Shown piece by piece: positions 32,417-63,466 of a stretch of 64,000 nucleotides of DNA. The translations under genes were made by a program, and so were the position numbers. How positions within the stretch are numbered: the stretch's first letter is position 1; each line of letters opens with the position of its first letter. The DNA is from a bacterium (GTDB lineage Bacteria > Zhuqueibacterota > Zhuqueibacteria > Residuimicrobiales > Krinioviventaceae): NCBI GenBank assembly GCA_029561455.1, contig JAKQIY010000006.1, positions 142,860 to 206,859 on the forward strand, written 5' to 3'. The notes under the pieces were generated by a model. It saw only the letters and a list, made by a program, of their open reading frames with translations. It was not told the DNA's origin and searched no databases.

Positions 32417-32450
32417 TATTTAACTCCTTGAAAAATTATAATATCAGTCC

Positions 32451-36522: not shown

Positions 36523-36623
36523 TTCTTTTCCCTCTTTCTTCCAATTTTAAATTACCATCCATGGCATCATTTATCTTTCTCGAATCCTGAAAAAGGTTGT
36601 ATAAAACATCAAACCGGGTTTAT

Positions 36624-37499: not shown

Positions 37500-37689
37500 A
37501 ATGACTACCTCTGTACTTTTACTCTTACCCGGTTTAAAGAATTATTGGTTTTGAATCACAATCGTAATATTAGTGATTCCGGTTTGAATAGCATTACCGG
37601 AATTATTGGTTGTAAATTCAAACCCGGTAAGATAAAATTGATACATAAAAATTTTCATTATTACACTATCCTGTAGAATTATTAAATAA

Positions 37690-38610: not shown

Positions 38611-38642
38611 GATAAACCTCTCTTTTTGTTTAATTTATGTTT

Positions 38643-39545: not shown

Positions 39546-39666
39546 GGTACTACCCCTTTCTTAAAAATTTTACAGCGTTTTGGTTAAACTGTTGGTTATT
39601 ACTGTTAAAATGCTTACTCCCACAACCCTCCTTTCACGTGTTGATAATTACTAGTATTGTTGATTG

Positions 39667-41531: not shown

Positions 41532-41542
41532 AGTTATTCTCC

Positions 41543-42115
41543 CTAATAAATACCTGTTCCAGCCATATCGTCGCCGGCCATTTGTTTTTGATCCTGAGTG
41601 TAATTAACCAGATAATTGCCGGTAAAACCAGTTGCCTGCCTGGCAGCCTCTTCGATTTCGTCGGATCTTGGCGTTAATCGGTTTTGGTAAATAGAAATAT
41701 CGTTAATATTTATGAAAACCCAGCTGCCGGATTGCCCGGTCGGCATTTCTGAAATATAAATTGTATAATCATAAACCCCGGCAGGAGGCTCCCAGAGGGT
41801 ATAAAAATACTCATAAAATTCCTGACCGATTTTGGTTTTGGTATCGTTAATTATCAGTCCATCAATTTCCAATACATCGCCCGGACGAGTATTTTTTACA
41901 GTCTCAGTTTGTTCTGTTTCTTTAACAGTATCAGCCTGCTGCTGGACTTCCTGCCGGGCTTCCTGCAGTAATTTTTCCAGCAACGCTTTGGTGTTCTGTG
42001 ACTTTTTTTCTTTATCGCTGACTGTTGTACTATCGTTTGTTTGCGTATAAAGGGGTACAGTCATCATAAAAACACACAGCATCGTAACTAAAGTACTGGT
42101 TACACATTTTTTCAT
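41543..42115 (-). CDS. csgE: Curli production assembly/transport component CsgE-like protein.
   Basis: A signal peptide is present. LEIDGLIINDTKTKIGQEFYEYFYTLWE matches E. coli CsgE [28 protein letters not shown], and GSWVFININDISIYQNRL matches GSWITITVNQDVIFQTFL. It is the first gene of the E-F-G order and lies 12 bp upstream of csgF. Confidence 0.65.
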   Translation of the reverse strand: MKKCVTSTLVTMLCVFMMTVPLYTQTNDSTTVSDKEKKSQNTKALLEKLLQEARQEVQQQADTVKETEQTETVKNTRPGDVLEIDGLIINDTKTKIGQEFYEYFYTLWEPPAGVYDYTIYISEMPTGQSGSWVFININDISIYQNRLTPRSDEIEEAARQATGFTGNYLVNYTQDQKQMAGDDMAGTGIY

Positions 42116-43400: not shown

Positions 43401-44765
43401 TCAATTCTCCACCCCCAACAACCTTCTTGCCCCCCGCACCGCGCCGTTGCGGCCATCCCCATCGGCGATAACCTGCAACAATCCCGCCGCACGGTTGATA
43501 CCCTTGATCCGCTTTTTCGGCAAAAATCCCCCATTACGCACCAGGTGGACAAACTCTTCTTCATCGATCATCCCCATTTCAAACATGCGCTGGTAAGCGT
43601 TCAACTCCTTGTCCAGCGCCGTGGCGTTCAGCAGCCGCGCCCGCGCCTGTTCCGTCTTGTCGAGCAGATTAACCTCTTTCCATTCCAGCTTCCAGTTCGC
43701 CCCGGCCTCGCCGCGCAGGATCAAAAACGTATCCACCACGCGACGTATAATCGGGTCGATTTTCGTCCGGTACGAGTTGATATTCGCAACGATCATATCG
43801 TTCTGGTTATTGCTCATCCGCTCGGTCGTCGTCCACTTGTACAGACCGAACATAAACGGCGGCAGTCCCGTTTTGGTTATGATTTCCTCCTGCGCCGTAT
43901 GCACCGGCACTTGCAGGTTCAATATGGTATCCTGTCCGCCGAGTATTTTCACGTCGATACTGGCCCCCTCCGGCACGGCCGCGGCTACATCCCGCACACT
44001 CCCCCTGCGCCGAGCCCGGAACACCTCGGTAATATCATTCTGCAAATCCTCCGCCGCTTTTTTTACGCGCCCGAAATCGCCCCCGCGGCCCCCTTGCACC
44101 GTCACCAGGAAGGTCGGGTCCCCCACCCGCCATACCTGGTTTTCGATAGCCTGCTGGATGCGTAAAAAGATTTTCACCACAAACGGCAGCGAATAAAACA
44201 GACTGTATCCCTGCGGATGCCCGTCCCGCTGATCAAAACTGAGATAATAGATGAAATCCTGGTTGGCAAACGGCAGCACATTAAACACCCCCTCGCGCGC
44301 CTGACCCAGCAGCAAACAACCGTTGCGCTCCACAAAGCGGAAATCGTTGGCACGGGCGATCTTGAGCTGCTCCACATCATCCAGCATTTCGGACGGCACC
44401 AGTTCCCCAAAACCCATGCCTTTAGCCAGCGCCGAATCGCACAACTGGTCCACCCACGTATTCAGGCCCGAACTGAAATGGTTCACCCGTACGCCGGACT
44501 TGAACGCGTTCAGCAACTGCTGCACGCGCGGATCTTGCGCGGTCAACTCAAAATCGCCGATCAGCCGCACCAGCTTGATTACCGCCACATCCAAAAGCGG
44601 CACCGCCTCGCGCATCAGGTCGTACAAGTCCAGGTTGAACTTTAATGGCTGATAACCTTGCAGCGCCAGCGCAAAAGGATTCTCCCACGCATCGCGCGTC
44701 TGTGTCCGACTGCTTTTGGCGGACTCTTCCCGCCCCGCAAACCACCTGCTAAAAGGATTTCGCAT
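43401..44765 (-). CDS. Hypothetical soluble protein, 454 aa, family not recognised. It has a vague phage-portal-like feel.
   Basis: The ORF is intact with no signal or TM segment. It has a Gly-rich loop (VQGGRGGDFGRV). It is the first gene of a three-gene minus-strand operon. Confidence 0.6.
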   Translation of the reverse strand: MRNPFSRWFAGREESAKSSRTQTRDAWENPFALALQGYQPLKFNLDLYDLMREAVPLLDVAVIKLVRLIGDFELTAQDPRVQQLLNAFKSGVRVNHFSSGLNTWVDQLCDSALAKGMGFGELVPSEMLDDVEQLKIARANDFRFVERNGCLLLGQAREGVFNVLPFANQDFIYYLSFDQRDGHPQGYSLFYSLPFVVKIFLRIQQAIENQVWRVGDPTFLVTVQGGRGGDFGRVKKAAEDLQNDITEVFRARRRGSVRDVAAAVPEGASIDVKILGGQDTILNLQVPVHTAQEEIITKTGLPPFMFGLYKWTTTERMSNNQNDMIVANINSYRTKIDPIIRRVVDTFLILRGEAGANWKLEWKEVNLLDKTEQARARLLNATALDKELNAYQRMFEMGMIDEEEFVHLVRNGGFLPKKRIKGINRAAGLLQVIADGDGRNGAVRGARRLLGVEN

Positions 44766-45490: not shown

Positions 45491-46120
45491 ATGCAAAACT
45501 CAAATAAATATATTGCCATCATCGGCGATCTGGTCAACTCCCGCGCCATGACCAACCGCAACGAGGTGCAAAATGCGTTGATCAATACCCTGAACACTAT
45601 CAACTCCAGCGATCTCAAACAACATATCGCCGCCAAATTCGTTATTACCCTCGGTGATGAATTCCAGGGACTGGTAACGCGTAATTTCCCCCTTCACCCT
45701 TTTCTCGAATTATATCATTCCGGCCTGCCCGCCAATGTCGCTACCCGCTTTGGTATCGGCCTGGGAGAATTGGCCACCGAATTAAAAAGCGAAACCATCG
45801 GTATGGACGGCCCCTGCTTTCACAACGCCCGCTCTGCAATTACCAGGGCTAAAAACGAAAATATCAACCTTATCTTTCAGGGTTTCGAAATGAATACCGC
45901 TCTCAATGCCTTGTATCATAACATTAACAATATTACCCAAAACTGGAAAGCCAGACAACTGCAAGTTATCTCGCTTTATAAAGATACGGAAGATCAAACG
46001 AATGTTGCAAAAAAAATGAAAATATCAAGACAAGCGGTTCATCGTATTTTAAAAGCAGCAAAATATGACCTGGTGCAAACCGGCTGGGATGGTGTACAAG
46101 AACTATTCTCCTTTATTTGA
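45491..46120 (+). CDS. SatD-like protein with a C-terminal helix-turn-helix, a putative regulator.
   Basis: The N-terminal YIAIIGDLVNSRAM resembles the signature I recall for SatD-family proteins. The C-terminal KMKISRQAVHRILKAAK is HTH-like, sigma-70 region-4 style. Confidence 0.45.
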   Translation: MQNSNKYIAIIGDLVNSRAMTNRNEVQNALINTLNTINSSDLKQHIAAKFVITLGDEFQGLVTRNFPLHPFLELYHSGLPANVATRFGIGLGELATELKSETIGMDGPCFHNARSAITRAKNENINLIFQGFEMNTALNALYHNINNITQNWKARQLQVISLYKDTEDQTNVAKKMKISRQAVHRILKAAKYDLVQTGWDGVQELFSFI

Positions 46121-46993: not shown

Positions 46994-47968
46994 TTAATAC
47001 CCGCTTATCCACAGGTTGCCGTAAGCATCAAAATCCATATCTGTTAATTTTTCAATCTGCCGCCCGGTTTTGCTGTCAATCAGGGCATAAGTGGCAATAA
47101 CGTTCATATTATTATCATACCGCTTTAATACCTGTTCGGAATTGTCATAAGAATAGAGTCCTTCTTTCCAGGCCAACGCTTCCAGTTGCACCACCGGGGG
47201 CGTCCAGGTTTCTGCAAACCCGCCAATAGTTACATCGTGCCGGAAAATTGCGGTCCGCGAACAGGAGAACAACCGCTCGCCGGCCTTGTCGTAGGCCAAT
47301 CCGGTCAGATTGGCGCTCACCGCATATCCCCCTGCCCGCGAGCCGTCAAAGCGATTCAATACTATAATTGAATCCGGCGCCTGGGTAACATAAAAGTTAT
47401 TTCCGATAATCGTACAGGCTTTAATATTTTTATCTTTTAAAATATTGGGCAAATATTTTTCAACTACCCATTTACTGTTCTCATACTTGAATTGTATTAT
47501 ATCAGTTGAAAAAAACCAGCAGGTTGTATTATGGATGGCCATCGGTTTGCCGGAATAAACCATATCGTCTAGTCGTAACCGCGAAGTTAAATAAATTTTG
47601 GGAACCCTATAATCCCGGTTTATATCACTATAATCGACCTGAAAATTCCGGTCGCCAATCGGATAGCCATCCCTTTCAAAATGTAAAAAATATTTGCCGG
47701 GGTAAACCGGGGTAATTAAAAAATTCCCGAGGCTATCGCTTACACCTCGGAAAAAGACCGAATCCACATCATATACTAACACCGCAGCGGTTAATACTAC
47801 TTTTACTCCCGCCAAAGTACTATCACTATCCCAATCTGTGATCTTGCCACTAAAGCTGTAGAATGGTATATCCGGCCGCGTAACGTGATGATCTTGTTTG
47901 TTCCAGCACCCGGCGAAAAAAATCATTAAAATACAGGTTACGCAATGCAACTTTTTAAACCTTGTCAT
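46994..47968 (-). CDS. Lipoprotein of the same multi-copy family as 22964-28215; this is a sixth, dispersed copy.
   Basis: The lipobox is FFAGCWNKQDHHVTRPDIP. The N-domain reads KITDWDSDSTLAGVKVVLTAA...SDSLGNFLITPVYPGKYFLHFERDGY. The C-terminal signature is ...YALIDSKTGRQIEKLTDMDFDAYGNLWISGY. Confidence 0.75.
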   Translation of the reverse strand: MTRFKKLHCVTCILMIFFAGCWNKQDHHVTRPDIPFYSFSGKITDWDSDSTLAGVKVVLTAAVLVYDVDSVFFRGVSDSLGNFLITPVYPGKYFLHFERDGYPIGDRNFQVDYSDINRDYRVPKIYLTSRLRLDDMVYSGKPMAIHNTTCWFFSTDIIQFKYENSKWVVEKYLPNILKDKNIKACTIIGNNFYVTQAPDSIIVLNRFDGSRAGGYAVSANLTGLAYDKAGERLFSCSRTAIFRHDVTIGGFAETWTPPVVQLEALAWKEGLYSYDNSEQVLKRYDNNMNVIATYALIDSKTGRQIEKLTDMDFDAYGNLWISGY

Positions 47969-48204: not shown

Positions 48205-49860
48205 GTGACTATGAAAACCTTACTAAAAACCATCTGTTTTATTTTGTGTTTGTTTATTCCGGTTTTAACTTTATCCACAACGCCGCCTCCTCCCTCGATA
48301 CAGATCAACGACGCGATGGAATTCACCTCCTCCAATTTGCCGATTGTCGTCATCAATACCAACGGTATGCAAATCCGCGATGATCCGCGTATAATAGTGG
48401 ACATGGGCATTATCGATAACGGCAATGGCCAGCGGAATAATTTAACCGATCCCTTCAACGATTACAACGGTAAAATCGGCATCGAATATCGCGGCAGCGC
48501 CACCAGCGCTTATCCCAAAAGACAGTACCGCATCGAAACCGTCGATTCCCTCGGCGAAAACCTCAATGTCTCCCTCATGGGCCTGCCCAAAGAAAATGAC
48601 TGGATTTTATATGGGCCCTATACCGACGATATTTCCCTCATTCGCCATGTTCTCGCCTACCGGCTGTCCAATGAAATTGGCCGCTATGCCAGCCGCACCC
48701 GGCTCTGCGAACTGGTGATGAATGATGATTACCGCGGTTTGTATGTGCTTATGGAAAAAATTAAACAGGATAAAAATCGCGTCGATATTGCTAAACTACT
48801 CTCTACCGATATTACCGGCGACGAGATCACCGGCGGTTATATAATCAAGGTCGATAAATCTGCCGGAGAAAACGTCGCCGGCTGGCAATCTGAAAACCGC
48901 GTCAATTATCAGTACCATGATCCCCAGGCTGATGAACTGGTTACCCAGCAAAAACAATACATCAAAGATTACATCAATAGTTTTGAATCCTGCATGGCGA
49001 ACCTGGATGATAACGAACAGAACGACATTCCGGAGTATGCCGCTTTTATCGACGTACCTTCATTTGTCGACCATTTTCTACTCAATGAATTCTGCAAAAA
49101 CGTGGACGCTTACCGAATCAGCGCTTATTTATATAAAGAAAAGGACAGCAAAGGCGGTAAACTTTATGCCGGGCCGGTGTGGGATTTCAACCTCAGTTTT
49201 GGTAACGCCTGGTATGCTGAAGATTACATGGTTACCAATACCTGGCAGGTGGATTATACCACTATCATTCGTCCCTGGGATGGTTATAAAGTCCCATTCT
49301 GGTGGCCAATTTTGGCGCGCGATCGGGCTTTTGTTGAATTACTCTTGCAGCGCTGGAATGAACTCAAAAACCTCAATTTCAGCAAAGATCATCTTTATAC
49401 GGTTATTGATAATCTCGTTATTGTCATGACTGAAGCCCGGCTACGCAATGCAGCGCGCTGGCCGGAAATGGCAGATAATGATTACGAGGCGGAAATAACC
49501 ACTATGAAACACTGGCTCAGCGACCGCTGGGACTGGATGAATATCAATCTTGGTTTATTGCCCTCCGGCACTAGCGGTTCGGCAGATGTGGCTAATCAGT
49601 TCGCTTTACAACAAAATTTCCCCAATCCGTTCAATCCCGCTACTACCATAACCCTCAAGATATTATCAAAAGCGCAGGTCGAATTAAAAGTCTACAACAC
49701 CCTCGGCCAGGAAGTAACCACCCTGGTCAATGATGTTATTTCACCAACACTAAGCTATCCTGTTGAATTCAACGCTGCCGGATTACCATGCGGAGTATAT
49801 ATTTATCAACTCAAAGCCAATAATTATGTCACGTGCAAAAAAATGGTACTGATCCGATAA
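48205..49860 (+). CDS. CotH kinase family protein with a T9SS C-terminal sorting domain.
   Basis: CotH-like blocks are present (EYRGSATSAYPKRQYRIE; YRLSNEIGRYASRTRLCELVMNDDYRGLYVLMEKIKQDKNRVDI; LNEFCKNVDAYR). A signal peptide is present. The CTD reads NFPNPFNPATTITLKIL...LKVYNTLGQEVTTLV...GVYIYQL...KKMVLIR. Confidence 0.8.
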   Translation: MTMKTLLKTICFILCLFIPVLTLSTTPPPPSIQINDAMEFTSSNLPIVVINTNGMQIRDDPRIIVDMGIIDNGNGQRNNLTDPFNDYNGKIGIEYRGSATSAYPKRQYRIETVDSLGENLNVSLMGLPKENDWILYGPYTDDISLIRHVLAYRLSNEIGRYASRTRLCELVMNDDYRGLYVLMEKIKQDKNRVDIAKLLSTDITGDEITGGYIIKVDKSAGENVAGWQSENRVNYQYHDPQADELVTQQKQYIKDYINSFESCMANLDDNEQNDIPEYAAFIDVPSFVDHFLLNEFCKNVDAYRISAYLYKEKDSKGGKLYAGPVWDFNLSFGNAWYAEDYMVTNTWQVDYTTIIRPWDGYKVPFWWPILARDRAFVELLLQRWNELKNLNFSKDHLYTVIDNLVIVMTEARLRNAARWPEMADNDYEAEITTMKHWLSDRWDWMNINLGLLPSGTSGSADVANQFALQQNFPNPFNPATTITLKILSKAQVELKVYNTLGQEVTTLVNDVISPTLSYPVEFNAAGLPCGVYIYQLKANNYVTCKKMVLIR

Positions 49861-50153
49861 AAAAATTCTTCTCTTCGGGTTTGAATAAATGGGGGAATTA
49901 ATTTATTTAAAAAAAAGTTATTTATATATATTTTTGAAGATCGGATATTCTATAAATCCCTGCCCGGTATAATTTTTCTATTCTCCTAGAGTTTAATACT
50001 CAATGAAGAAAAGTGATTAATTCGATCTTGTACAAATCTCAGGTCTGCCACGAAATAAACGCCACCACTCTCCGGTATTATGAATCTGTAATTTTACTTT
50101 TAGGTGTAGAGTAATTTCCTTATCTAAAATTTCTCATTATCAGGAGAGAGCTT

Positions 50154-53100
50154 ATGAAAATGCATAATTTTTTACTCTGTATGATAGGCTTTATTTTGTT
50201 TTCCGGAATTTCATTAGCTACCGCTCCCTCTAGCGGGTTAAAACCAGATTTTCCAAATTTGTTATACACACAATACATACCTTCACTATTAACTATACCA
50301 ACTGCATCACAATTAACCAAAATTGCCGATATTGGCGGACGAACCAACACAATTATATTCAAGGATTATTACGTTTGCGCCAATGAAGGCAGAAACCTGG
50401 TCATTATCGATTTATCCGACCCAACTACACCGCAACTAATGAGTAAGCTCCAGCTAGGTGAGAGCTTTATCACCAATCTCTTTGTTTCCGGTGAAAAGGC
50501 GCTGGCCTGCACAGAATTTTCCGGCACATATATTATTGATCTGACCAATCCATACACACCTGTCATTATCGGTCATATTCCGGCGATTGGCATCGTTTAT
50601 GAAACTTATTTTGCAGGTAATTATGCATATCTTGCAGAAGGGAAAAATGGCTTTAACATTTATGATATTACGAATCCTGAACAGCCGCAAACTGTTTACC
50701 ATAACGCCGATTCCACCTATAATATTCGGATTAATGGTGCATTTTGTTATACCTGCAGCGGCTCAAAAATTACAGAATTGAATGTAAACAACCCGGCTTC
50801 ACCGCAAATAATTACGGAATTCAAACTTGGTTTTGATAATGCCAGGATGCTATATCTACACAATAATTAGATTTATGTACAGGATTACCATGAATTGCGC
50901 ATTTACGACATCAGCAATCCAGCAACATTACATCAAACTGGTTCTTATTCCTTCCCATCAGATCCCTGGGATTTAAAAGTGAATGGGAATCTCGCCTATA
51001 TTGTCTGATCCAGGTATTTTAGTATCCTGAATATCAGTAATCCTGCCACTCCACAATTAGTTAGCCAACAAGTGAACTTTTATCGGCCCTTACAGCTAGC
51101 AGTGTCAGGCGATTTGGCCTTGCTAGCCTGTTGGGAAAATAATATTCAGGTCCATAATTGCAGTGATCCTGCCAATCCAGCGCTAATATCCACCTGGGTA
51201 GGAGTGGCGCCAGTTGCACAATCAATAACAATAGATAAAAACAAAGCATTTATTGCCGAAAGGATGGGGGGAATGGCTATTGTGGATATTTCCAATCCGG
51301 CAGTTCCGCAATTAATACAAAAATATACAAACAACCTTAAAAGCTGTGATGCCGTCGCCGTTAAAGATAACATTGTACTGCTGGCCGAAACTGATATATT
51401 GCATATTTTTGATTATTCAAATCCGGCAGGGCTTTTACCCCTTGCCGATTTTTCTGTTCCGGAAGGTACAATAAAGAGTATATTAATTGACGGCTCGACA
51501 GCCTGGCTGGCTGCAAGTAATGAGGGTTTGATCGCACTGGATATCAGCGATCCGGCTCATCCTGCTAAAATCAGCCAGGTGGACAATTCTCAATATGTAG
51601 GAAATTTGGCAATATCCGGCAATTATATATGGGTTACCGAATACCTGTGTGGTTTGAGAGGATATAATATTTCAACCCCTTCAAATCCTCAGGAGATTGC
51701 ATTCATCCCAACTCTTTCCAAATCCAGAGATATTGTCATTAGTGGTAACTATGCTTATATCATCCAGGATGATAATTCAAAAATTTACATTGTGGATATT
51801 AGCGCTCCGCTATCGCCAGGTGTTGTGGATAGTGTGAATACCGAGATTTTTGACCCTTATTCTGTTCACATACAAAATAATATACTTTTTATTGCCGGAT
51901 TTAGAGGAATTCAGGGCTTTGATATCAGCAATCCAACGCAACCTGTCGAGGCCATCGCTTATTGTAAAGTATCTACCAATATTAATCATATAAAGGGAAA
52001 CAATGAATTTCTGTATGCCGCAAATGAAGGTATGGGCCTTGAAATCTACAAACTGCCAGGCTCACCTGTTGTTTCAGGAATAATCGTTACAAACACCAAT
52101 GACCTGGGGGAAGGCTCGCTGCGCCAGGCGCTGGATCAGGCCAACAGTGAAACAGGCCCCGATACCATCCGGTTTAATATTCCTGTCACCGACCCGAATT
52201 ACAATGCCGCCTCAGGTGTGTGGACAATTAAACCGGTTTCACAGTTACCATCCTTTAATGAGCAGACAGTTATTGAAGGTAATTCCCAGGCTGATTTTAT
52301 CGCCGAAGACACCAATCCCAACGGCCCGGAAATTCAAATCGACGGCAGCCTGTTATCATCCTGTCCGGGTTTAATTGTCAACGCCGATAATTGTGAAATC
52401 AGCGGCCTGGCTATTATCAATTTCCAGAGAGCGGCCATAAACGCCTCTCATGTTAACGGCCTTAAAGTCTGGGGCTGTTACCTGGGTCTCGATGCCACAG
52501 GCGCTACCGCCGGCCCCAACCTGTACGGCATTTTCTTATTCAACAATTGTAGCAACTCCATCATTGGTCCCATTGATGATTCCATGTCCCCCAATGTTAT
52601 CTCCGGAAATAGCGAAGTCGGTATTTACCTGGTACAAAACTCGTCAAATAATACTGTATATCGAAACATAATCGGTCTTGATCCGCAAGCGACTGTAAAG
52701 ATCGGCAATGCCGTTGCCGGTATTGCTATTGGGGATCAGTCCATAAATAATATGATTGCGGAAAATATTATTGCCGGTAATAAAGATGGTATTAGCATTG
52801 CTGATTGCATTGAAAATCAAATTCAGAACAACTCTATTGGCGCCAATCCCGAGTTCATTGCCAATCTTGGCAACACCGAATATGGTATCTACATAACGGG
52901 CTCCTCGGAACGTAATATGATTTGTGAAAATTCCATCTGGTATAACGGTTTGTACGGTATACTTGTTATAGGTCAGAATTGTGTTACAAACACTATCAGC
53001 CGCAACAGCATTGCCTTTAATTCGGAAGCGGGCATCGACCTGCGCTACGGCGGCAATAACGACATGCAGCCACCCGGACAGTTGCATAAAACCGGCGCAA

Positions 53101-53609
53101 CCCTCAGCGGCGTAACCGTGCCCAAAGCAGTTGTAGAATTGTTCAGCGACCAGCATGATCAGGGCCAAACTTTCCTGATAGATACCTTTGCCGATAACAA
53201 CGGCGTTTTCTCCTTTTCCCTGCCTGCTGAGCCACTTTTACCCAATTACACCCTGACGGCTACAGATACATTAGGCAATACCTCGGCATTTACCGCGCCT
53301 ATCTCTACAGTAATTATGGAACAGGAACAAGCAAAAATCCCTTCTCAATTTACACTGGAACAAAACTACCCCAATCCCTTCAATCCGGTTACCTCAATTC
53401 GCTACGGCTTGCCAACTGCCGACCTGGTTACTGTTAAGGTATTTGATATTCTTGGTAAAGAAACAATGACCCTGATAAATGCGGAAAAACAAGCAGCCGG
53501 CTGGCATAACCTCAAATTCGACGCCTCAACACTCACAACCGGTCTCTATTTCTACAAGGTTATTACTACCCGTTCAAAAGGGAGTGGCAAAATGATACTT
53601 GTCAGGTAA
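50154..53609 (+). pseudogene. LVIVD-repeat / right-handed beta-helix T9SS cargo protein interrupted by two in-frame stop codons. It is a paralog of 53993-57454.
   Basis: A single reading frame is collinear with the 1153-aa paralog throughout. It contains an in-frame TAG at 50868-50870 (LYLHNN*IYVQDYHELRIYDISNPATL, versus LYLHNDLLFVANNNILHIYNVSNPAT in the paralog) and an in-frame TGA at 51006-51008 (NLAYIV*SRYFSILNISNPATP, versus NLAYIADYYHIILLDLSNPANP). The track splits it into 50154-50870 and 51072-53609. It ends with an intact T9SS CTD. Confidence 0.6.
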
Positions 53610-53992
53610 ACGAGTTGGGTAATACATAGCCCTGTCGTCAATATACTGCCTCCAGAACTCTGACTCGCATTTTCCCCAACAGTATTCGGTATGTCTGGTC
53701 TTTTAACCTGGTTTAATGCATGAGAGGCATCAGTCCTGAACCTATCTGGGAGTTATTACTGGCATTCGTGTAACTCACTTTAGAGCTATACCGGTTTTCT
53801 CTTTATCTTCTCAATCGGTATGTTTTTTCAAAAATCCTAAAAAAAGTAATATTGTATTAAAATTTTATGTATATTTCATCTCAGATTAAAAAATTCAACT
53901 CTTTTAAAGCTCGTTTTTTCAATATTCCAATTCGATGAGTAAAATTAGAAAATTATAATTGCCCAATTTATCTCATAATCGGGAGAGTTGTC

Positions 53993-56900
53993 ATGAATAA
54001 ACATTACACCCTGTTCTTTATGTGTGGATTGTTGCTGCTAGCCTGCTTTGCTTCTGCAGTTCCATTCTCACCCGGCGTTCCTGCGCAGGCTGCCTCCGCT
54101 TTACTCACCCGGCCAAATCCCCTCTTGTACACTGAAAACACTGCCAGTTCAGGTTTAACCAAAATTGCCGATATTGGCGGGCAAAGCAGGGATATTGCCT
54201 TAAATGGTTATTATGCTTATACCGGCGAGGGCAATAAACTGGTCATTCTCGATGTCTCCAATCCCGCTGCCCCGCAATTACTCAGCAGATTGAAACTGGG
54301 AGAAAGCGAAATCTATAATATTACTGCTTCGAATGATCTGGTTTTCGTCTGTACTGAATATTCAGGTTCTTTTATTATCGATGTCGCTAATCCCCATACG
54401 CCGGCTATTGCCGCCCATCTACCGTATACGGGCTGGTCATTCAAATCCTGTCTCGCCGGAAATTATGCTATTTTGGCCAGGGGAACCAACGGCTATATCA
54501 TTTTTTATATCGTCGACCCCTATCAACCACAGGTTGTATATACCGGTTCCGTTATTGCCAATGCAGTAGAGGTAGTTGGTAATTACTGCTTCCTGGCCGA
54601 TTATACCAAACTGACAGTTCTCGACATCAGCGCACCCGCGGCGCCTCTGTTGGCCGCCGAATACCCGTTTGCCTACAACGACGCCTCGATGTTGTATTTA
54701 CACAATGACTTGCTGTTTGTTGCCAACAATAACATTTTGCATATCTATAACGTCAGCAATCCGGCGACCATTGCAGAGCTCAGTTCCTATACGTTCACTG
54801 CGGGCTATCCCTACGATGTAAAGATGGTCGGCAATCTTGCTTATATTGCTGATTATTATCATATTATTCTTCTTGATCTCAGCAACCCGGCGAACCCGCT
54901 TTTGCTTGGTCAGGAAGACATTGGCTGCCTTCCCTACCAGTTAGCCGTTTCAGGAAATTTTGCTTATTTCGCCTGTTTTTATAAAAACGTCCAGGTCTAT
55001 AATTGCAGCGATCCTGCAGACCCATTTTGGTTTTCCGAATGGACCGGCCCGGTTCCCACCGCACGGGAATGCGTTCTTGACCAAAACAAATTATATGTCG
55101 CCAACCGTGAAGCCGGTATGAGTATTCTGGATATCTCTGTTCCCCAATCACCTTTTTTACTGGGCAAATATACTGACATTTTCTACAGTTGCAATGCCCT
55201 GGCGGTTAAAGATAATTATGTTCTGCTTGGCGACCTGGATACGCTGCGTATTATTAATTGCTCAAATCCCCAGGCGCTCGTGCAGGTTGCCACGTTAACC
55301 TTATTAAACGGCTATATAAGCGATATTAAAGTGCGAAATTCGTATGCCTGGGTAACGGATAATTATAACGGCCTGATCGGGGTAGATATCAGCAATCCCG
55401 CCAACCCGGTCATTACCGGTAACTATGATACTCCGGGCGATGCGTGTCATTTGGCATTATCCGGTAATTATGCCTGGGTTGCCGATGGGTCTTCCGGTTT
55501 ACGCTGTATGAATATTGCATCTCCTGCCAATCCGTTCGAAATCGCTGTGGTGTCCTCTTTAAAAAATGCTTATGATGTTGAAATTTCCGGTAATTATGCC
55601 TGGGTCGTAAAAAGGTGGAATCCCTATATTTATCAGGTAGATATCAGTACGCCCTTGCTGCCGATCATTACCGACAGTATTAATACACAAATTTTTGACC
55701 CGTTCTCCGTACTTATTCAGGATAATCTTGTATTAATTGCCGGGGTTCAGGGTATTCAGGGTTTTGATATCAGCAATCCGGCTCAACCCGTCGAGGCAGT
55801 TCCATTTTATCAGGTTTCCTCATGGGTATCCGGCATGGACGGCAGCGCTGAATATCTCTTTACCGCCAATGACGGCATGGGCGTCGAAATTTTTAAACTG
55901 CCAACGCCTTCTCCGTTTACCGGACTGCTGGTAACCACTACCGCCGATAGCGGCGCCGGCTCCCTTCGTCACGCCATTGAACAAGCGAACATTAAAGCAG
56001 GGCCGGATACGATACGCTTCAATATACCTGATAGCGACCCCAATTTTAATATTATTGACGGCGTGTGGCACATTCGCCCGGCGTCCCCGCTGCCCTCGAT
56101 TACCGACGCTCTAATCATTGAAGGCTATTCTCAAACCGATTTTATTGCTGCCGATACCAATCCCGCCGGACCGGAAATTCAAATCGACGGCAGCCAGGTT
56201 TTTTCCGGCTCCGGTCTGAACGTTAATGACTATAACTGTGAAATCAGCGTTCTGGCGATCATTAACTTTCCCCATGCGGGTATTATGGTCTCCATTGCCG
56301 ATGGTATAAAAATCTGGGGTTGCTACCTGGGAATCAATGCCACAGGCAGTGCCGCCGGGCCCAATCGCTATGGATTATATTTATGGGGTGGCTGTGAAAA
56401 TTCAATTATCGGCCCCCAGGGTGCCTCACAAACTGCCAATGTAATTTCCGGTAACAGCGAAACCGGCATATTCATTGATGAAGACTCGCGCAATAATAAT
56501 ATAACCGGGAACATTATCGGTTTGAATTACAACTCTAATCTAAAACTGGGGAATGGTTATGCCGGGATCGCCCTGCAGGAGCAATGCAACGATAACCGGA
56601 TCGCTGAAAATATTATTAGCGGTAACGGCAATGGCGTAATCATAACCGAATGTGCCGGTAACCTGCTTGAAAATAACATCATCGGTACAAATAACAGTCT
56701 TGCTCCCGAACTAGGTAATACGGAATATGGCGTTATCATTATGACCAAAGCATTTCAAAACAAGCTATCCGAAAATATTATCTGGTACAACGGTAAAAGC
56801 GGTGTGCTTGTCAATGGTCAAACCAGTTATGCCAATACTATTTCCCGCAACAGTATTGCTTTTAACACCGACGCCGGTATAAAGCTGGTCAATAACAGTA

Positions 56901-57454
56901 ATGATAATATCGATCCTCCCGCCCAGTTACACAAAACCTGGACCACCCTCAGCGGCGTCACCCGGCCATTAGCAACAGTAGAACTGTTCAGCGATCAGGA
57001 CAGTCAGGGTCAGAATTACCTGGGAGACACTATTGCCGATAATAGCGGCGCCTTTTCATTTACCTTGCCGGTTAATCCGTCTTTATCGTATTACACCCTG
57101 ACGGCTACGGACACCTCCGGCAACACCTCGGCGTTTTCCATGTCCCTGCCTACCGACATCGAGGAACAACAGCAGCAAAAACTGCCGGAACATTTCACCC
57201 TTGATCAAAACTATCCCAATCCCTTCAACCCGGTAACCACCATACGTTATGGCCTGCCCGTCGCCGAGGTTGTCACCCTTAAGGTATTCGATGTACTTGG
57301 CCGCGAAATGCTGACCCTCATCGACGCCGAAAAACAATCCGCCGGCTGGCACACCTGTACATTCGAAGCCTCCCGCCTCGCCAGCGGACTCTATTTCTAC
57401 CGGCTGCAAACCCCGCATCAAACGCTTTGGGGTAAAATGACGCTGGTGAAATAA
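53993..57454 (+). CDS. LVIVD-repeat / right-handed beta-helix protein with a T9SS C-terminal sorting domain, 1153 aa.
   Basis: A signal peptide is present. Repeated LVIVD-type units are present (KLVILDVSNPAAPQLL; LTVLDISAPAAPLL; HIILLDLSNPANPLLLG; MSILDISVPQSP; IGVDISNPANPVI...). The middle has a parallel beta-helix-like run (N.I.GN.......I...). The CTD reads NYPNPFNPVTTIRYGLP...LKVFDVLGREMLTLID...GLYFYRL...GKMTLVK. Confidence 0.8.
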   Translation: MNKHYTLFFMCGLLLLACFASAVPFSPGVPAQAASALLTRPNPLLYTENTASSGLTKIADIGGQSRDIALNGYYAYTGEGNKLVILDVSNPAAPQLLSRLKLGESEIYNITASNDLVFVCTEYSGSFIIDVANPHTPAIAAHLPYTGWSFKSCLAGNYAILARGTNGYIIFYIVDPYQPQVVYTGSVIANAVEVVGNYCFLADYTKLTVLDISAPAAPLLAAEYPFAYNDASMLYLHNDLLFVANNNILHIYNVSNPATIAELSSYTFTAGYPYDVKMVGNLAYIADYYHIILLDLSNPANPLLLGQEDIGCLPYQLAVSGNFAYFACFYKNVQVYNCSDPADPFWFSEWTGPVPTARECVLDQNKLYVANREAGMSILDISVPQSPFLLGKYTDIFYSCNALAVKDNYVLLGDLDTLRIINCSNPQALVQVATLTLLNGYISDIKVRNSYAWVTDNYNGLIGVDISNPANPVITGNYDTPGDACHLALSGNYAWVADGSSGLRCMNIASPANPFEIAVVSSLKNAYDVEISGNYAWVVKRWNPYIYQVDISTPLLPIITDSINTQIFDPFSVLIQDNLVLIAGVQGIQGFDISNPAQPVEAVPFYQVSSWVSGMDGSAEYLFTANDGMGVEIFKLPTPSPFTGLLVTTTADSGAGSLRHAIEQANIKAGPDTIRFNIPDSDPNFNIIDGVWHIRPASPLPSITDALIIEGYSQTDFIAADTNPAGPEIQIDGSQVFSGSGLNVNDYNCEISVLAIINFPHAGIMVSIADGIKIWGCYLGINATGSAAGPNRYGLYLWGGCENSIIGPQGASQTANVISGNSETGIFIDEDSRNNNITGNIIGLNYNSNLKLGNGYAGIALQEQCNDNRIAENIISGNGNGVIITECAGNLLENNIIGTNNSLAPELGNTEYGVIIMTKAFQNKLSENIIWYNGKSGVLVNGQTSYANTISRNSIAFNTDAGIKLVNNSNDNIDPPAQLHKTWTTLSGVTRPLATVELFSDQDSQGQNYLGDTIADNSGAFSFTLPVNPSLSYYTLTATDTSGNTSAFSMSLPTDIEEQQQQKLPEHFTLDQNYPNPFNPVTTIRYGLPVAEVVTLKVFDVLGREMLTLIDAEKQSAGWHTCTFEASRLASGLYFYRLQTPHQTLWGKMTLVK

Positions 57455-57485
57455 AATACCGGGTACAAATATTTCGTTTTTTCTC

Positions 57486-57513
57486 AGAGCAAGGGGCAAA
57501 AGCCCCTTGCTCT
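57486..57513 (+). terminator. Candidate intrinsic terminator hairpin downstream of the 1153-aa gene.
   Basis: A perfect 12-bp stem (AGAGCAAGGGGC / GCCCCTTGCTCT) closes a 4-nt AAAA loop, 32 nt after the TAA stop. It is flanked by T-rich sequence on both sides. Confidence 0.5.
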
Positions 57514-57539
57514 AAATTCTTTCAAATTCTATATTCATC

Positions 57540-57905
57540 TAGTCAACACTGTCCATGCCGTCCACCCCCTGAAAAACAAGCTCTTTCACCAACGTCATTT
57601 GCAGATCGCGCCGGGATTCATATCCCGGTGCGGGAAATAAACCAGGGTTTCTAACCCTGGATAATGATGTTAATACTCTGCATTACCAAACTGCATTTCT
57701 GGTTCCAGGCCTCCCGGCTTGGAACCCCTTTACCCCGGCTCTGCCGGTAAAAATATGAATACTTTTACAGGGCGTCCCCCCGAACGCCCCATCGCTCAAT
57801 CTCGCTCAGGGAGTCCGTCCCAGAGCGCATAATAATGTAGAACATCCGTCCTGTAGTAAAATTTATAGTTCTGTATCAAGGGCAAAAGTCCCTTGTTTAA
57901 TATTT
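57540..57905 (+). ncRNA. Candidate structured small RNA, unassigned; the strand is uncertain.
   Basis: The segment is gene-free and carries at least five perfect GC-rich hairpins within ~250 nt: CCGGGAT-TCAT-ATCCCGG (57611-28), CCAGGGTT-TCT-AACCCTGG (57642-60), GGTTCC-N14-GGAACC (57701-26), GGGCGT-N7-ACGCCC (57770-88), and CAAGGG-CAAAAGT-CCCTTG (57877-95). The last is followed by TTTAATATTT, which looks like a terminator. It did not match RNase P, tmRNA or other motifs I know. Confidence 0.2.
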
Positions 57906-58422
57906 ATTATCCAACCTCACCCCTTTTCCCATCATACCAATTGCAATTCCTATCTGCTCTTGAAAACTATTTTATTTGAGCTGAATTCATCTGACGGATA
58001 ATGTATGTTATTTTATTATAATTCTTTAGGCTTGTCTAAAATTTTTTCACCTAAAAAATGAATAATGGTTTTTTTACTTGCTACAAGCATCGAAAATTTA
58101 TATATTGCATCGTGAATGGAGTGGGCCTTTTTTAATCGGGGGGCCTCAAGCTGGACCTCAAATTCGGGATTTATTTAAATTTCCAAAAGCGCAAAAACAC
58201 TATCAAAAGTTATTTTTTACCAGGTGTTATTTTTTACACATTTAATTGTGTTTTTTACAACAGTATGAATTATCAGGGCTTTTAGACCCTGATTTACATT
58301 CATAGCAGGCGTTTAAGAACTATTTAAATTTTTACCTGAAACAAACCTGTAATTAATATTTACTAATTACTACTTATTCAATTATGGGTAATGTTATGGG
58401 TAATTAAGAGGAGGAGGAACAG

Positions 58423-59859
58423 ATGGGTAAATTTTGTAGTAAAATTTTATGGGGAGCGCTGATCACTCTCACTTTCTCAACACTGGTACGTGGTCAAACG
58501 CATTTCTTGTTCACCCCAACTGAAGACTATTATAGTATCATCGTCAGCCAGGCAACAATTGCCGGTCAACCCCTGCAAAACGGCGATGAAATCGGAGTCT
58601 TTTATGATAATGGCAGCGCCATGGTTTGCGCCGGAGCAGTTGTCTGGCCTAACAACGGCATTAGCGCCTGGGGTGATGATTCACAAACTACTGCTAAGGA
58701 TGGCTTTGCTACCGGTGATTTGCTGGTTTTCAAAATCTGGGAGTCAGGATCAGCATCTAATTATGACGATGTAAACGCTACATTCTCAACAGGCAACGGT
58801 ACCTGGGGCAATGGTATTTATGCTCAGGTGAGTCTTGATGCTGTACCATATATCCCTATCGGCCCGGATCTGGATGTACAGGATAATGTTCATTCTTTTA
58901 ATTTCGGGAATATCACTGTCGGATTAAATTCATCGCATACTTTTGTTATTCAGAATGAAGGCGATGCAAGTCTGGATATCTCTTCTATCGATATTGGTGG
59001 AACCAATGCAACTGATTTCAGCATTTCCAGCGGAGGCGGAACTTTCTCTGTTGCTGCCGGCAGCGATCATAATTTGGGTGTACAATTTACTCCAGCGGCA
59101 GCAGGAGCCAAAACTGCAACACTAACCATTTACAGCAACGACCCGGATGAAAACCCCTGGCAAATAATTCTTTCCGGTTCAGGTGAAACAGTCCTGCCGC
59201 ATTATAACTTTGCAGCCACTGAAGACTATTATAGCATTGTAATCAATAATGTGACAATAAATGACCTGCCTTTGCAAAATGGCGATGAAATTGGCGTCTT
59301 TTTTGATAATGGCAGCACCCTGGTTTGCGCAGGCGCAGTTATTTGGCCTGATTATGGTTTGAATGCCTGGGGTGACGACTCCCAAACCAACGACAAAGAT
59401 GGATTTATTGCAGGTGAATACCTGGTTTTTAAAATTTGGGATGCCAGCGCTTCAACCGAGTATACTAATATCAATGCCCTTTATCTGTACGGTGACGGCA
59501 CCTGGGGCAACGGTGTGTTTGCTCAGGTTAATTTGCATAATGTTCCTGTTGCTATTAACACAACAAACGATACAAGACCGATCCAGTTCGATCTGCTACA
59601 AAATTATCCTAATCCATTCAATCCGCAAACAACAATAGAGTATTCCCTGCCGGAAACTGCAGATGTACAGGTCGAGGTTTTTAATATAACTGGACAAAAA
59701 ATATGTACCCTGGTCAATGAAAAATTACAACCGGGGTATTATCGAGTGGTTTGGGATGGTACAAATGACCGTTCCGAAACGGTTAGCGCCGGTATTTATT
59801 ATTTAATCCTTAAAGCCGGAAATTATACCCAAACAAAAAAAATGGCCTTTATTAAATAA
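58423..59859 (+). CDS. T9SS cargo protein with two copies of an uncharacterised ~110-aa domain, 478 aa.
   Basis: There is a strong SD (AAGAGGAGGAGG) and a signal peptide. The internal duplication is FTPTEDYYSIIVSQATIAGQPLQNGDEIGVFYDNGSAMVCAGAVVWPNNGISAWGDDSQTTAKDGFATGDLLVFKIWESGSA, then FAATEDYYSIVINNVTINDLPLQNGDEIGVFFDNGSTLVCAGAVIWPDYGLNAWGDDSQTNDKDGFIAGEYLVFKIWDASAS. The CTD reads NYPNPFNPQTTIEYSLP...VEVFNITGQKICTLV...GIYYLIL...KKMAFIK. Confidence 0.75.
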   Translation: MGKFCSKILWGALITLTFSTLVRGQTHFLFTPTEDYYSIIVSQATIAGQPLQNGDEIGVFYDNGSAMVCAGAVVWPNNGISAWGDDSQTTAKDGFATGDLLVFKIWESGSASNYDDVNATFSTGNGTWGNGIYAQVSLDAVPYIPIGPDLDVQDNVHSFNFGNITVGLNSSHTFVIQNEGDASLDISSIDIGGTNATDFSISSGGGTFSVAAGSDHNLGVQFTPAAAGAKTATLTIYSNDPDENPWQIILSGSGETVLPHYNFAATEDYYSIVINNVTINDLPLQNGDEIGVFFDNGSTLVCAGAVIWPDYGLNAWGDDSQTNDKDGFIAGEYLVFKIWDASASTEYTNINALYLYGDGTWGNGVFAQVNLHNVPVAINTTNDTRPIQFDLLQNYPNPFNPQTTIEYSLPETADVQVEVFNITGQKICTLVNEKLQPGYYRVVWDGTNDRSETVSAGIYYLILKAGNYTQTKKMAFIK

Positions 59860-59885
59860 AAAAATATCTCAATTGTTTTTACTAA

Positions 59886-62800
59886 TTGGAGGGTGAAATG
59901 AATCATTTAAAAAATACAGTTCTTGCCCTGAATATAATGTTTTTCCTATTCCTTATGGGATCATTTTCATTTACGTATTCTGAACCAGAAGCAAAAGCAA
60001 ACGACCGTTTAAAACAATCTGATCAAAACAGGGATGACGGTAAAATTTCAATAATCAGAAAAAAACTGGATGGCTCATTGCTGGGAAAAATTGATTTTTC
60101 CAAAGAAACTGGCAGGATATCAAATACTGAAATACCTGAACCGCCATCTCCACCCACAACGGATGGGTGGCAAACAATCAAATCTGAAACATTTGAAGGT
60201 TCTTTTCCAAACGATTGGCAACTATTAGGAACAGGATGGGGTAAAAGTAATTATCGCAAAAATAATGGCACCTATAGTGGTTGGTGTGCCCAAGGTACGA
60301 ATCCAGGCGGTCATACCTATACATATAACATGAATACCTGGATGATTTATGGTCCTTTTGACTTGTCCGACCCTAACATTACTAATGCAAAACTGTCTTT
60401 CTGGCACTGGACTATATCCGAATATCAATATGATTATTTCATGGTAGGGGTTTCCAGAACCAGTTATAATTCCGGTTACAGTGTTTATGGTTATACCGGT
60501 AACTTTACAACTCTATCCGGAAATGTCAATGGCTGGAATTTCCTGGAGTTTGACTTGAATGATTGGGATGGCGAAGGCGACAGTTATCTTGACGATAATC
60601 AGGTATGGATTGCCTTTGGCTTTGGCAGTGATAATGTTGTAAATTATGAAGGTTCTTATGTGGATGATATATCAATAACCAAAGAAGCATCAGATCCTTT
60701 CACATTAACATCTCCCAATGGCGGGGAAACCTGGTACACGGGAAGTAATCAAAACATCACCTGGAATTCTACCGGCAACAGTGGTAATATTAAAATTGAA
60801 TATACTACCAATGGCACAAGTTGGACAACAATTGTTGCCAGCACTCCGGACGATGGATCTCATCCCTGGACTGTGCCGGATACTCCTTCTACCACCTGTA
60901 AGGTTAAAATTACGGATTCTGATGGAACGCCTACAGATCAAAGTAATAACAACTTTACAATTAAAGCGCCCTTTATTACCGTAGCTTCTCCTAATGGGGG
61001 TGAAAGTTGGGAATCTGGCACTAATCATAATATTACCTGGACTTCCGGGGGAACCAGTGGTAATGTAAAAATTGAATTTACGACCGATGGCTCTAACTGG
61101 ATTTCTATTATTGAAAGCACACCTGATGATGGCGCTCATTCATGGGCTATTCCTGAATCTCCATCAACCAATTGTCGGGTCAGAGTTACCGATGTTGACG
61201 GGAATCCAACGGATACAAGTAATAACTCTTTTACAATTACTGCCCCCAATATCATCATTACTTCTCCTAATGGTGGAGAAAGTTGGCTGCCTGATTCAAG
61301 TCATCCTATTACCTGGACTTCTTACAGAACAAGTGGTAATTTGAATATTGACCTTTCCACTAATAATGGGGTAAGCTGGACGAGAATTCTGTCCAATGTT
61401 ACAGATGATGGCTCAAAATCTTGGACAGTGTCAAATACACCATCATCACAATGTTTGATTGCTATCACCGATGCCGACGGAGCTCCTAGTGATACAAGCG
61501 ATAATGTATTTACAATACAAGGTGATAATATCACTATAACCTCACCCAACGGCGGCGAGAGTTGGGAAGTTGGCAGCGCCCATAACATAACCTGGACGAC
61601 ACTCGGTACTATTCCCAATGTTAAAATCGAATATTCCATTAATAATGGAACAAACTGGAACACAATCAACGCCAATACACCTAACAATAATACACTATCC
61701 TGGACTATACCCGATAACCAATCAACTAATTGTCTTATAAGGGTCGCAGACATCGACGGTACACCCACAGATCAAAGTGACAATGTCTTTACTATAACAA
61801 CACCTCCTTGTCCCCCCCACTTTGCATTTACGGTTACTGAAGACTATTATCCCATTTTATTATATACAGTGACACTCGATGATATCCCGGCAAATACCTG
61901 CGACGAAGTAGGCGTTTTTGCTTCGGATGGTCAGGGTGGGCTGGTATGCGCCGGTGCGGTAACCATTAACGGGGCGCCTCCTTATTCCTTACAAGCATGG
62001 AGCGATGATTCACAAACCGGGGTAAAGGACGGTTTCTCTTCTGGCGAAGCTTTGCATTACCGCTTCTGGGATAGTGAAACACAAACTGAATATGGACCGG
62101 AATTCAACGCGACCTATACTACCGGTAACGGTAACTGGGGAAATGGCGCTATGGCGGAAATCAATCCTCTTCAGTTCAAGGCTGGATGTAATCTGACAAT
62201 AAATCTCCTCGCTGGTTGGAACTGGATTTCCAGCAATGTTGCCCCTGATTCCCCGGATATGGAAACAGTGTGGGCTGGCATCCCCGGCTTGAATATTGTT
62301 AAAGGACAAAGCGGTTTTTATATTCCCGGCGTCATTAACACTATTGGCGATTGGGATGTAAAAAAAATGTACATGGTTAATGTACAATCAGCTTGCCAGT
62401 TAGTAATTACCGGCTCCTGCATTGCCGCCGACATGCCCATTCCCTTACAGCAGAATTGGAACTGGGTAGGTTACTTACCCAATTCCCCGATCAATGCCGA
62501 AACTGCTCTGGCCAGCATTGTCTCACATCTTTCTATTGCAAAATCCCGTAACGGCTTCTATATCCCGGGTACAATCAATAACATTGGTAATATGACCACC
62601 GGCTCCGGTTACCGGATATACCTGGATCAGGCAGCAACTCTCATATACCCCGCTGCTACAGCCAGCCCGGAGCAAAATTTAGCACCCGAATTACATAAAA
62701 CTGCACCACAAAGGCAACATTTTGCAACCAGGCCGCAAAGTGACGATTACCATGCTATAGTCATTGAAAATGTTCAGGGTCTACAACCTGGCGCAGAAAT

Positions 62801-63341
62801 TGCGATATATTCTGAGAATGGTTTATACGCCGGCTCTGTTGTATACACAGGTCAAACTCCCATAGCTCTTTTGGCTTGGGCCGATAACGATGAAACCGAT
62901 CTTGTTGAAGGATTAAAGTCGGGCGAAAAAATGTACTTTAAATATTGGAATGAACAAAATAATAATGCTGTTGAAATGAATTGCCTGGTCAACAAGGGTT
63001 CAGAATTTTTCGGGGCATCACCATATTCATTTGTAACCCTGGAAACCGTAGAGTCCTTACCAACCCGGTTCAGTTTGCAGCAAAATTATCCCAATCCGTT
63101 TAACCCGACCACCACAATTCAATATGAATTACCGGTGGCCTCAAGGGTTGAACTGGCCATTTACAATATTAATGGCGAGTTGATCAAACTCCTGACCAAT
63201 GAATTACATGAAGCAGGCCGGTATACGGCTATTTGGGATGGTACTAATCAAGACAACACTCCAGTATCGTCAGGTATCTATTTTTATCAGCTCGACACCC
63301 AAAAGGAAAAATTTATTAAAAAGTTGACCCTGGTCAAATAA
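59886..63341 (+). CDS. Large T9SS cargo protein, 1151 aa, with five Kre9/KNH-like tandem repeats and two copies of the same ~110-aa domain found in 58423-59859.
   Basis: Five ~80-aa repeats of the form TSPNGGE.W..G..HNITW...GTSGNVKIE.T..G..W..I...TPDDG...W.IP..PST.C.V.VTD.DG.PTD.S.N.FTI lie between residues ~280 and 640. Two domain copies follow (FAFTVTEDYYPILLYTVTLDDIPANTCDEVGVFASDGQGGLVCAGAV...AWSDDSQTGVKDGFSSGEALHYRFWD, and SDDYHAIVIENVQGLQPGAEIAIYSENGLYAGSVV...AWADNDETDLVEGLKSGEKMYFKYWN). The CTD reads NYPNPFNPTTTIQYELP...LAIYNINGELIKLL...GIYFYQL...KKLTLVK. Confidence 0.75.
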   Translation: MEGEMNHLKNTVLALNIMFFLFLMGSFSFTYSEPEAKANDRLKQSDQNRDDGKISIIRKKLDGSLLGKIDFSKETGRISNTEIPEPPSPPTTDGWQTIKSETFEGSFPNDWQLLGTGWGKSNYRKNNGTYSGWCAQGTNPGGHTYTYNMNTWMIYGPFDLSDPNITNAKLSFWHWTISEYQYDYFMVGVSRTSYNSGYSVYGYTGNFTTLSGNVNGWNFLEFDLNDWDGEGDSYLDDNQVWIAFGFGSDNVVNYEGSYVDDISITKEASDPFTLTSPNGGETWYTGSNQNITWNSTGNSGNIKIEYTTNGTSWTTIVASTPDDGSHPWTVPDTPSTTCKVKITDSDGTPTDQSNNNFTIKAPFITVASPNGGESWESGTNHNITWTSGGTSGNVKIEFTTDGSNWISIIESTPDDGAHSWAIPESPSTNCRVRVTDVDGNPTDTSNNSFTITAPNIIITSPNGGESWLPDSSHPITWTSYRTSGNLNIDLSTNNGVSWTRILSNVTDDGSKSWTVSNTPSSQCLIAITDADGAPSDTSDNVFTIQGDNITITSPNGGESWEVGSAHNITWTTLGTIPNVKIEYSINNGTNWNTINANTPNNNTLSWTIPDNQSTNCLIRVADIDGTPTDQSDNVFTITTPPCPPHFAFTVTEDYYPILLYTVTLDDIPANTCDEVGVFASDGQGGLVCAGAVTINGAPPYSLQAWSDDSQTGVKDGFSSGEALHYRFWDSETQTEYGPEFNATYTTGNGNWGNGAMAEINPLQFKAGCNLTINLLAGWNWISSNVAPDSPDMETVWAGIPGLNIVKGQSGFYIPGVINTIGDWDVKKMYMVNVQSACQLVITGSCIAADMPIPLQQNWNWVGYLPNSPINAETALASIVSHLSIAKSRNGFYIPGTINNIGNMTTGSGYRIYLDQAATLIYPAATASPEQNLAPELHKTAPQRQHFATRPQSDDYHAIVIENVQGLQPGAEIAIYSENGLYAGSVVYTGQTPIALLAWADNDETDLVEGLKSGEKMYFKYWNEQNNNAVEMNCLVNKGSEFFGASPYSFVTLETVESLPTRFSLQQNYPNPFNPTTTIQYELPVASRVELAIYNINGELIKLLTNELHEAGRYTAIWDGTNQDNTPVSSGIYFYQLDTQKEKFIKKLTLVK

Positions 63342-63466
63342 TTTAACCGCGAGTAAAGTATATTTGTGTAGAACCGTTAAAGCCAGGTATGGACACAATA
63401 TCTGGCTTTAACATTTTATATTTACCAAGATTTCAGCACAACATAAGCAATGGAGTCGGAAAAATG

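Follow-up and report, generated by a model that had tools for sequence, protein, structure and literature searches.

Among described systems, those closest to the proteins considered here are GhpA, which serves Aureispira as a grappling hook, and SprB, the adhesin with which Flavobacterium glides. Both are large surface proteins built of immunoglobulin (Ig) repeats and secreted by a type IX secretion system (T9SS), and chains of this type have an adhesive role at the cell surface (bioRxiv 10.1101/2024.01.29.577165). The window analysed here is a 64,000-nucleotide (nt) stretch of the genome of a bacterium of the Zhuqueibacterota (GenBank assembly GCA_029561455.1, contig JAKQIY010000006.1, positions 142,860 to 206,859 of the forward strand), and our subject is a module of ~115 residues, hereafter M, that is found twice in each of the products of two adjacent open reading frames, ORF A and ORF B. 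Like GhpA and SprB, the M-bearing proteins have a Sec signal peptide, a T9SS C-terminal sorting domain (CTD), and surface-displayed chains of β-sandwich repeats. However, ORF A (478 amino acids (aa)) and ORF B (1147 aa) are much smaller than GhpA and SprB, and GhpA has no M. One relative (locus L031, 5778-10037), which has a single N-terminal M and ~1,250 aa behind it, matches the Ig-repeat stem of GhpA (PDB 9flp; E 3.6e-13).

The window holds a paralogous array of M-bearing T9SS cargo genes, all of them on the plus strand. ORF A (58423-59859; NCBI HPG41939.1) has a strong ribosome-binding site, AAGAGGAGGAGG, ahead of its ATG and encodes, in this order, a signal peptide, a first module (A1), a choice-of-anchor-D Ig domain, a second module (A2), and a T9SS sorting tail. 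A1 (58498-58842), supported by profile scan, translation, and AlphaFold2, spans aa 26-140 and abuts the signal peptide, and A2 (59197-59541) spans aa 259-373. The ASH/HYDIN-type Ig domain between them (58885-59184) scores 77.2 bits with NF012200, the choice-of-anchor-D model (cutoff 45), and is also matched by Pfam ASH and Cep192_D4. The tail is a T9SS type A CTD (59605-59856), recognized by TIGR04183 (38.1 bits), PF18962 (30.9 bits), and PF13860. ORF B (59898-63341; HPG41940.1; length counted from its ATG) consists of a signal peptide, a weak MAM-like region, four SPNGGE Ig-like repeats, and, at its C terminus, an M-r-r-M-CTD cassette, in which r is a second, unannotated repeat. The SPNGGE.W repeats (60699-61808; ~92 aa each) are Kre9/KNH-like and number four, not five as first counted. 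In ORF B they score 15.2 bits (E 0.037) with Kre9_KNH (PF10342, cutoff 24.6 bits), and homologous repeats in protein P0122 score 37.8 bits. The cassette is made up of module B1 (61815-62171), two r repeats (62190-62702; ~85 aa each), module B2 (62715-63047), which is a more divergent copy ahead of the CTD in which the conserved Cys is absent, and a T9SS type A CTD (63087-63338; TIGR04183 35.5 bits, PF18962 31.5 bits). Both tails pass the cutoffs of TIGR04183 (23) and PF18962 (27). Inspection of the sequences shows an N-terminal Sec signal peptide in each protein (MGKFCSKILWGALITLTFSTLVRG for ORF A, MNHLKNTVLALNIMFFLFLMGSFSF for ORF B). The window contains many other CTD-bearing genes.

The coordinates of all four copies of M were checked by translation. 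Identity to A1 is 59% for A2, 45% for B1, and 31% for B2, and with A1 as a BLASTP query, B1 and B2 are found at E 1e-33 and 7e-15, respectively, which is far above chance. Together with the T9SS tails, these values bear out the original prediction that the module occurs twice in each of two adjacent T9SS cargo proteins. When all six frames of the window were scanned with a profile, A1, A2, B1, and B2 were the only copies found. The array extends further, into a third co-oriented gene, ORF C, whose start lies at 63488 and which continues past the end of the window (64000). On the public contig (L001, 15066-18860), ORF C is 1264 aa long and ends with M-r-r-M-CTD; it carries two further copies of M, making a local array of 2+2+2. 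ORF B and ORF C have a conserved C-terminal M-r-r-M-CTD cassette beneath variable N-terminal parts. The N-terminal part of ORF C shows papain-like motifs (GSCVAWA, HANTIVGYDD, and NSWG) and has no match in Pfam or among PDB sequences even at E<=10. A papain-like protease head, an idea based on these motifs, is thus without Pfam or PDB-sequence support, and the region may represent a cysteine-peptidase-like head that is either new or strongly diverged. The NCBI names of the two complete proteins, "choice-of-anchor D domain-containing protein" for ORF A and "FlgD immunoglobulin-like domain containing protein" for ORF B, make no reference to M because they derive from other domains of these proteins.

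M is not covered by any curated family model that we could find in Pfam-A (2025 copy) or NCBIfam (release 20). In Pfam-A, the four copies gave no credible match at E<=1, the sole match being that of B2 to LAL_C2 (E 0.16), and NCBIfam models matched nothing in the regions of the four copies. When the search (E<=1) was extended to a diverse set of 49 copies with pairwise identity <40%, none of the Pfam or NCBIfam families matched two or more members, and the best matches (E 0.015 in Pfam and 0.002 in NCBIfam) were not convincing. Profiles built from 12 and 49 M sequences matched nothing among PDB sequences, which include GhpA. These searches uphold the view that the module is no named domain. 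The M regions were likewise blank in Pfam scans of ~30 whole homologous proteins, and a literature search with the motif strings and related terms found nothing on M. Profile-profile comparison with hhalign was also used to ask whether M is a diverged form of a domain found nearby. The choice-of-anchor-D Ig domain of ORF A is physically interleaved with M and has an NCBIfam model, yet it is unrelated to M in sequence (probability 0.4% with the 49-sequence profile). The probability was 0.1% for a CarboxypepD_reg domain of the window and <=0.4% for the r repeat, and these three candidates were rejected. As judged from sequence, M is a member of a very large family without a curated model.

The AlphaFold2 model of A1, computed from a 12-sequence alignment, is confident and all-β, with eight strands, a predicted local distance difference test (pLDDT) score of 94.2, and a predicted template modeling (pTM) score of 0.87. 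Foldseek of this model against the PDB found no match at E<=1e-3, and the modeled fold is a generic sandwich without a close solved relative in the PDB. The M-r-r-M cassette was modeled with a pLDDT of 88.5, with a disordered linker ahead of the last M, and the r repeats appear as β-rich units (pLDDT ~90). A WGNG signature that had been described as trailing the module turns out, in the high-confidence model, to form the final loop and strand of the module itself. On this model, M is a real extracellular β-sandwich domain of ~115 residues that is predicted to fold autonomously.

Conservation was assessed over 620 copies of M. It is highest at G47 (100%), G73 (98%), F36 (91%), C45 (90%), D31 (86%), T9 (83%), G34 (83%), W85 (82%), and F74 (82%), followed by A61/W62, D64, D65, T68, E78, and E92. 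The best-conserved residues are polar, aromatic, or Gly and fall largely in loops of the model. Many of them are acidic or aromatic loop residues, notably in the long loop that joins strands 4 and 5. The DD..T..DG loop is retained in every positional class of M, with the copy ahead of the tail being somewhat more diverged. Conserved Cys pairing, which had been suggested from the VCAGAV motif, does not hold, as C45 is the one conserved Cys and has no conserved partner; a Cys-Cys disulfide was rejected on these grounds. A Cys-Gln thioester, considered because neither the Cys nor the Gln is retained in B2, was rejected as well, since the Gln of DDSQT is present in only 20% of the 620 copies.

Next to the breadth of the family, the original suggestion that the module is specific to this lineage's secretome can no longer be held. 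An exhaustive HMMER search of 1.84 billion cluster representatives (clustered at 50% identity) found M in 7,189 of them at E<=1e-3, of which 3,867 pass E<=1e-10 and 802 pass E<=1e-30, and the top matches are proteins of 2,000-7,600 aa with up to 15 copies of M. By comparison, a word-indexed protein search, which returned 8, 4, and 24 mostly short proteins, understated the family. A scan of one genome per species with a 4-sequence alignment identified 75 loci, all in metagenome-assembled genomes. Those with informative names belong mostly to KSB1, Calditrichota, Latescibacterota, Fibrobacterota/Chitinivibrionales, Bacteroidota (Saprospiraceae, Bacteroidales, and Prolixibacteraceae), Ignavibacteriales, Gemmatimonadota, Raymondbacteria, LCP-89, and Zhuqueibacter, with a few that are labeled otherwise. 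Because M is thus spread over several phyla of the Fibrobacterota-Chlorobiota-Bacteroidota (FCB) group and their relatives, it is not lineage-specific. Rather, T9SS-bearing bacteria of the FCB group use M as a standard component of the proteins that they display at their surface.

The architectures in which M occurs were analyzed for 685 copies in 158 proteins. The first M very often begins at residues 20-30, directly behind the signal peptide and at the end furthest from the CTD, and the last M very often ends 90-105 residues before the C terminus, just ahead of the sorting tail. The gaps between copies take a few discrete lengths. Gaps of 0-10 residues correspond to tandem copies, and those of ~110, ~218, ~325, and ~760 residues to one, two, three, and seven ASH/HYDIN-type Ig domains of the choice-of-anchor-D type, respectively. 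ORF A (M-Ig-M-CTD) is the smallest form of this widespread alternation. A gap of ~178 residues corresponds to two copies of r, which has the motif L..GWNxIS..P...G.FYIPG..N.IG.m.pG.GY and no match in Pfam at E<=0.05. The r repeat is found almost only within M-r-r-M-CTD, an arrangement shared by 43 of 161 proteins, ORF B and ORF C included, and the variable parts N-terminal to this cassette comprise PKD, InlB B-repeats, SBBP propeller, BACON, Kre9-like repeats, and dockerin. Most relatives, like ORF A and ORF B, have T9SS tails. At least two adjacent, co-oriented module genes are present in 36 of the 75 loci. In a pairing that is common, the first gene encodes M-r-r-M-CTD and the next one a signal peptide, M, and β-helix or Listeria-Bacteroides repeats, to which a CTD is added in several cases.

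In many small proteins, M is the sole globular part, and it is combined with four different anchors. These are a signal peptide and a dockerin (P0002, P0006, and P0164), a signal peptide and a T9SS tail (as recorded by Pfam for P0181 and as read from the C termini of P0163 and P0165), an N-terminal membrane helix followed by a Pro/Thr-rich linker (P0167-P0172, with two tandem paralogues in L079), and a signal peptide combined with a basic-tailed membrane helix at the C terminus (P0007, P0175, P0177, and P0180). In this use of alternative anchors (T9SS tail, dockerin, or N- or C-terminal membrane helix), M is like the choice-of-anchor domains of NCBIfam, such as NF012200. If no other part of such a surface-anchored protein is globular, its function must reside in M.

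Several known families of small β-sandwiches offer themselves for comparison. M aligns to part of the Cyanothece lipoxygenase 5ek8, which we take to be a PLAT/LH2-type β-sandwich. PLAT/LH2 domains are eight-strand sandwiches of a size similar to M, with loops that bind Ca2+ and membranes, and they are typically found in intracellular eukaryotic proteins. However, M has no Pfam PLAT match. Non-catalytic carbohydrate-binding modules, such as CBM20 and CBM26, and the cohesins of cellulosome-type systems are, like M, small β-sandwiches that are often tied to dockerins or surface anchors, but M has no significant sequence or fold match to them. Moreover, no carbohydrate-active catalytic domain (glycoside hydrolase, lyase, or esterase) was found in the ~30 M proteins scanned with Pfam, nor was any other Pfam catalytic domain found in the M-bearing proteins scanned.

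We favor a reading in which M may be an adhesion or binding unit that is used multivalently, rather than a passive spacer, and we rate its chances as even. Proteins of the ORF A/ORF B type would be exported by the T9SS and retained at the cell surface through the CTD pathway. There, M would display a conserved surface of acidic and aromatic loops (GDEIGVF, CAG, AWGDD..T...DGF..GE, and WD), from which we infer a Ca2+-assisted binding surface. This surface would probably hold Ca2+ and contact a polymer as its ligand, be it a glycan or another protein at the surface, and avidity would come from the presence of several M per protein and of several paralogous genes in a row. The Ca2+ and ligand contacts are deduced from conservation and loop positions. 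Some of the evidence weighs against this reading. The near absence of enzymatic partner domains leaves a classic carbohydrate-binding-module role unsupported. In addition, M alternates regularly with Ig domains in giant proteins, like a structural repeat, and the conserved residues, among them acidic ones, appear from the strand order in the model to be placed at the two ends of the sandwich, which would also fit Ca2+-stiffened junctions between domains.

The last two observations belong to an account that we regard as possible but doubtful, in which M has a structural role alone, as a stalk or spacer. M would then be a rigid β-sandwich, perhaps stiffened by Ca2+ at its junctions as in the cadherin-like or BIg repeats of adhesins, extending functional parts from the outer membrane and filling an Ig-like slot beside the T9SS tail. 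In proteins of 2,000-7,600 aa, the regular alternation of M with ASH-type Ig domains (1, 2, 3, or 7 at a time) is what such a stalk would look like, and so is the placement of the last M, very often 90-105 aa before the C terminus and adjoining the tail. The L031 relative, with its match to the Ig-repeat stem of GhpA, a T9SS-secreted filament (bioRxiv 10.1101/2024.01.29.577165), points the same way. What this account explains poorly are the many small proteins consisting of an anchor and one M, in which a spacer has nothing to space, and the strong conservation of loop and polar residues among copies that are <40% identical. Such conservation is unusual for spacer Ig domains.

It is unlikely, in our view, that M is a protein-protein interaction module, either a cohesin-like receptor for dockerins or a domain that self-associates into a surface layer or a bundle, as GhpA strands do. 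The capacity of T9SS-secreted Ig-repeat proteins to bundle into heptamers is documented (bioRxiv 10.1101/2024.01.29.577165), adjacent paralogous module genes are found in almost half of the loci (the 36 of 75 mentioned above), and some polypeptides combine M with type I dockerins (P0002, P0006, P0164, and P0117). However, only a few of the examined proteins contain a dockerin, and M has no cohesin match in Pfam. A more ambitious version, to which we give only a slim chance, is that M, alone or as M-r-r-M by the T9SS tail, would be the missing interaction partner in FCB surface assembly, that is, a dockerin receptor or a module that locks cargo to the cell's own surface glycan or to neighboring cargo as an ordered coat. 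It is kept in consideration because M is fused to dockerins, is combined with four anchors, stands directly before the tail in dozens of protein families, and has no known relative. To our knowledge, the cohesin partners of dockerins in these FCB phyla are largely unidentified. Finally, that the similarity is merely compositional or reflects recent local duplication, so that M is no true family, is hardly credible, since the 59% identity of A1 and A2 within one protein would by itself be compatible with recent duplication, but the BLASTP E values between proteins (1e-33 to 7e-15), the thousands of homologues in several phyla, and the confident fold prediction are not.

ORF A and ORF B are probably co-transcribed, as had been proposed. 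In the list of open reading frames, ORF B begins at a TTG (59886), but a GGAGG ribosome-binding site lies just 5' of an ATG at 59898, where public gene calls also start the gene. The start of ORF B is thus taken to be this ATG, and the gap between the two genes, first given as 27 bp, is 38 nt (26 nt if the TTG were used). No terminator-like hairpin was found between ORF A and ORF B, whereas such hairpins flank the pair, at 57486-57513 (plus strand), 3' of the upstream gene, and at 63376-63412 (plus strand), 3' of ORF B. The first of these marks the opening of a new transcription unit at ORF A; ORF B has its own ribosome-binding site. Ahead of ORF A there is an AT-rich gap of 968 nt (57455-58422) with no sizeable ORF, in which hairpins are seen at 57486-57513, 57642-57660, and 57877-57895.

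Other loci in the window were noted in passing. Upstream of this gap, further T9SS cargo is encoded at 48205-57454 (plus strand), comprising a CotH-domain protein (48205-49860) and two paralogues with LVIVD, NosD/β-helix, and Big_6 domains, the first of which is split into two ORFs (50154-50870 and 51072-53609) and may be frameshifted or a pseudogene. A curli-type (type VIII secretion system, T8SS) locus occupies 29836-42115 on the minus strand, with CsgE (41543-42115), CsgG (39667-41091; Pfam E 2e-61), an OmpA-domain protein (29836-30996), and seven consecutive Q/N/G-rich proteins (31112-39545). Of these seven, the two that were scanned match Curlin_rpt, and the remaining five are alike by eye; seven curlin-like paralogues in a row are unusual. 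A low-GC stretch (0.35-0.37) at 22964-28215 (plus strand) contains five tandem genes encoding proteins of 330-346 aa, the last of which resembles by eye a gene at 46994-47968 (minus strand), whose product has a weak CarboxypepD_reg-like N terminus and a remainder without annotation. The window also encodes a 454-aa protein with no meaningful Pfam match (43401-44765, minus strand) and a SatD-family protein (45491-46120; E 6e-33).

The value of these findings lies in annotation and in the architecture of T9SS cargo; extracellular β-sandwich repeat families are familiar, and nothing is overturned. Although >7,000 protein clusters from several mostly uncultured phyla contain M, and single proteins carry as many as 15 copies, the domain has neither a name nor a model. 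As a small, confidently folded unit, it lends itself to adhesion or Ca2+-binding assays. If M, r, and the M-r-r-M-CTD arrangement were curated, thousands of giant surface proteins from sediments, digesters, and guts that are now called "hypothetical" would gain annotation over long regions that are blank at present.

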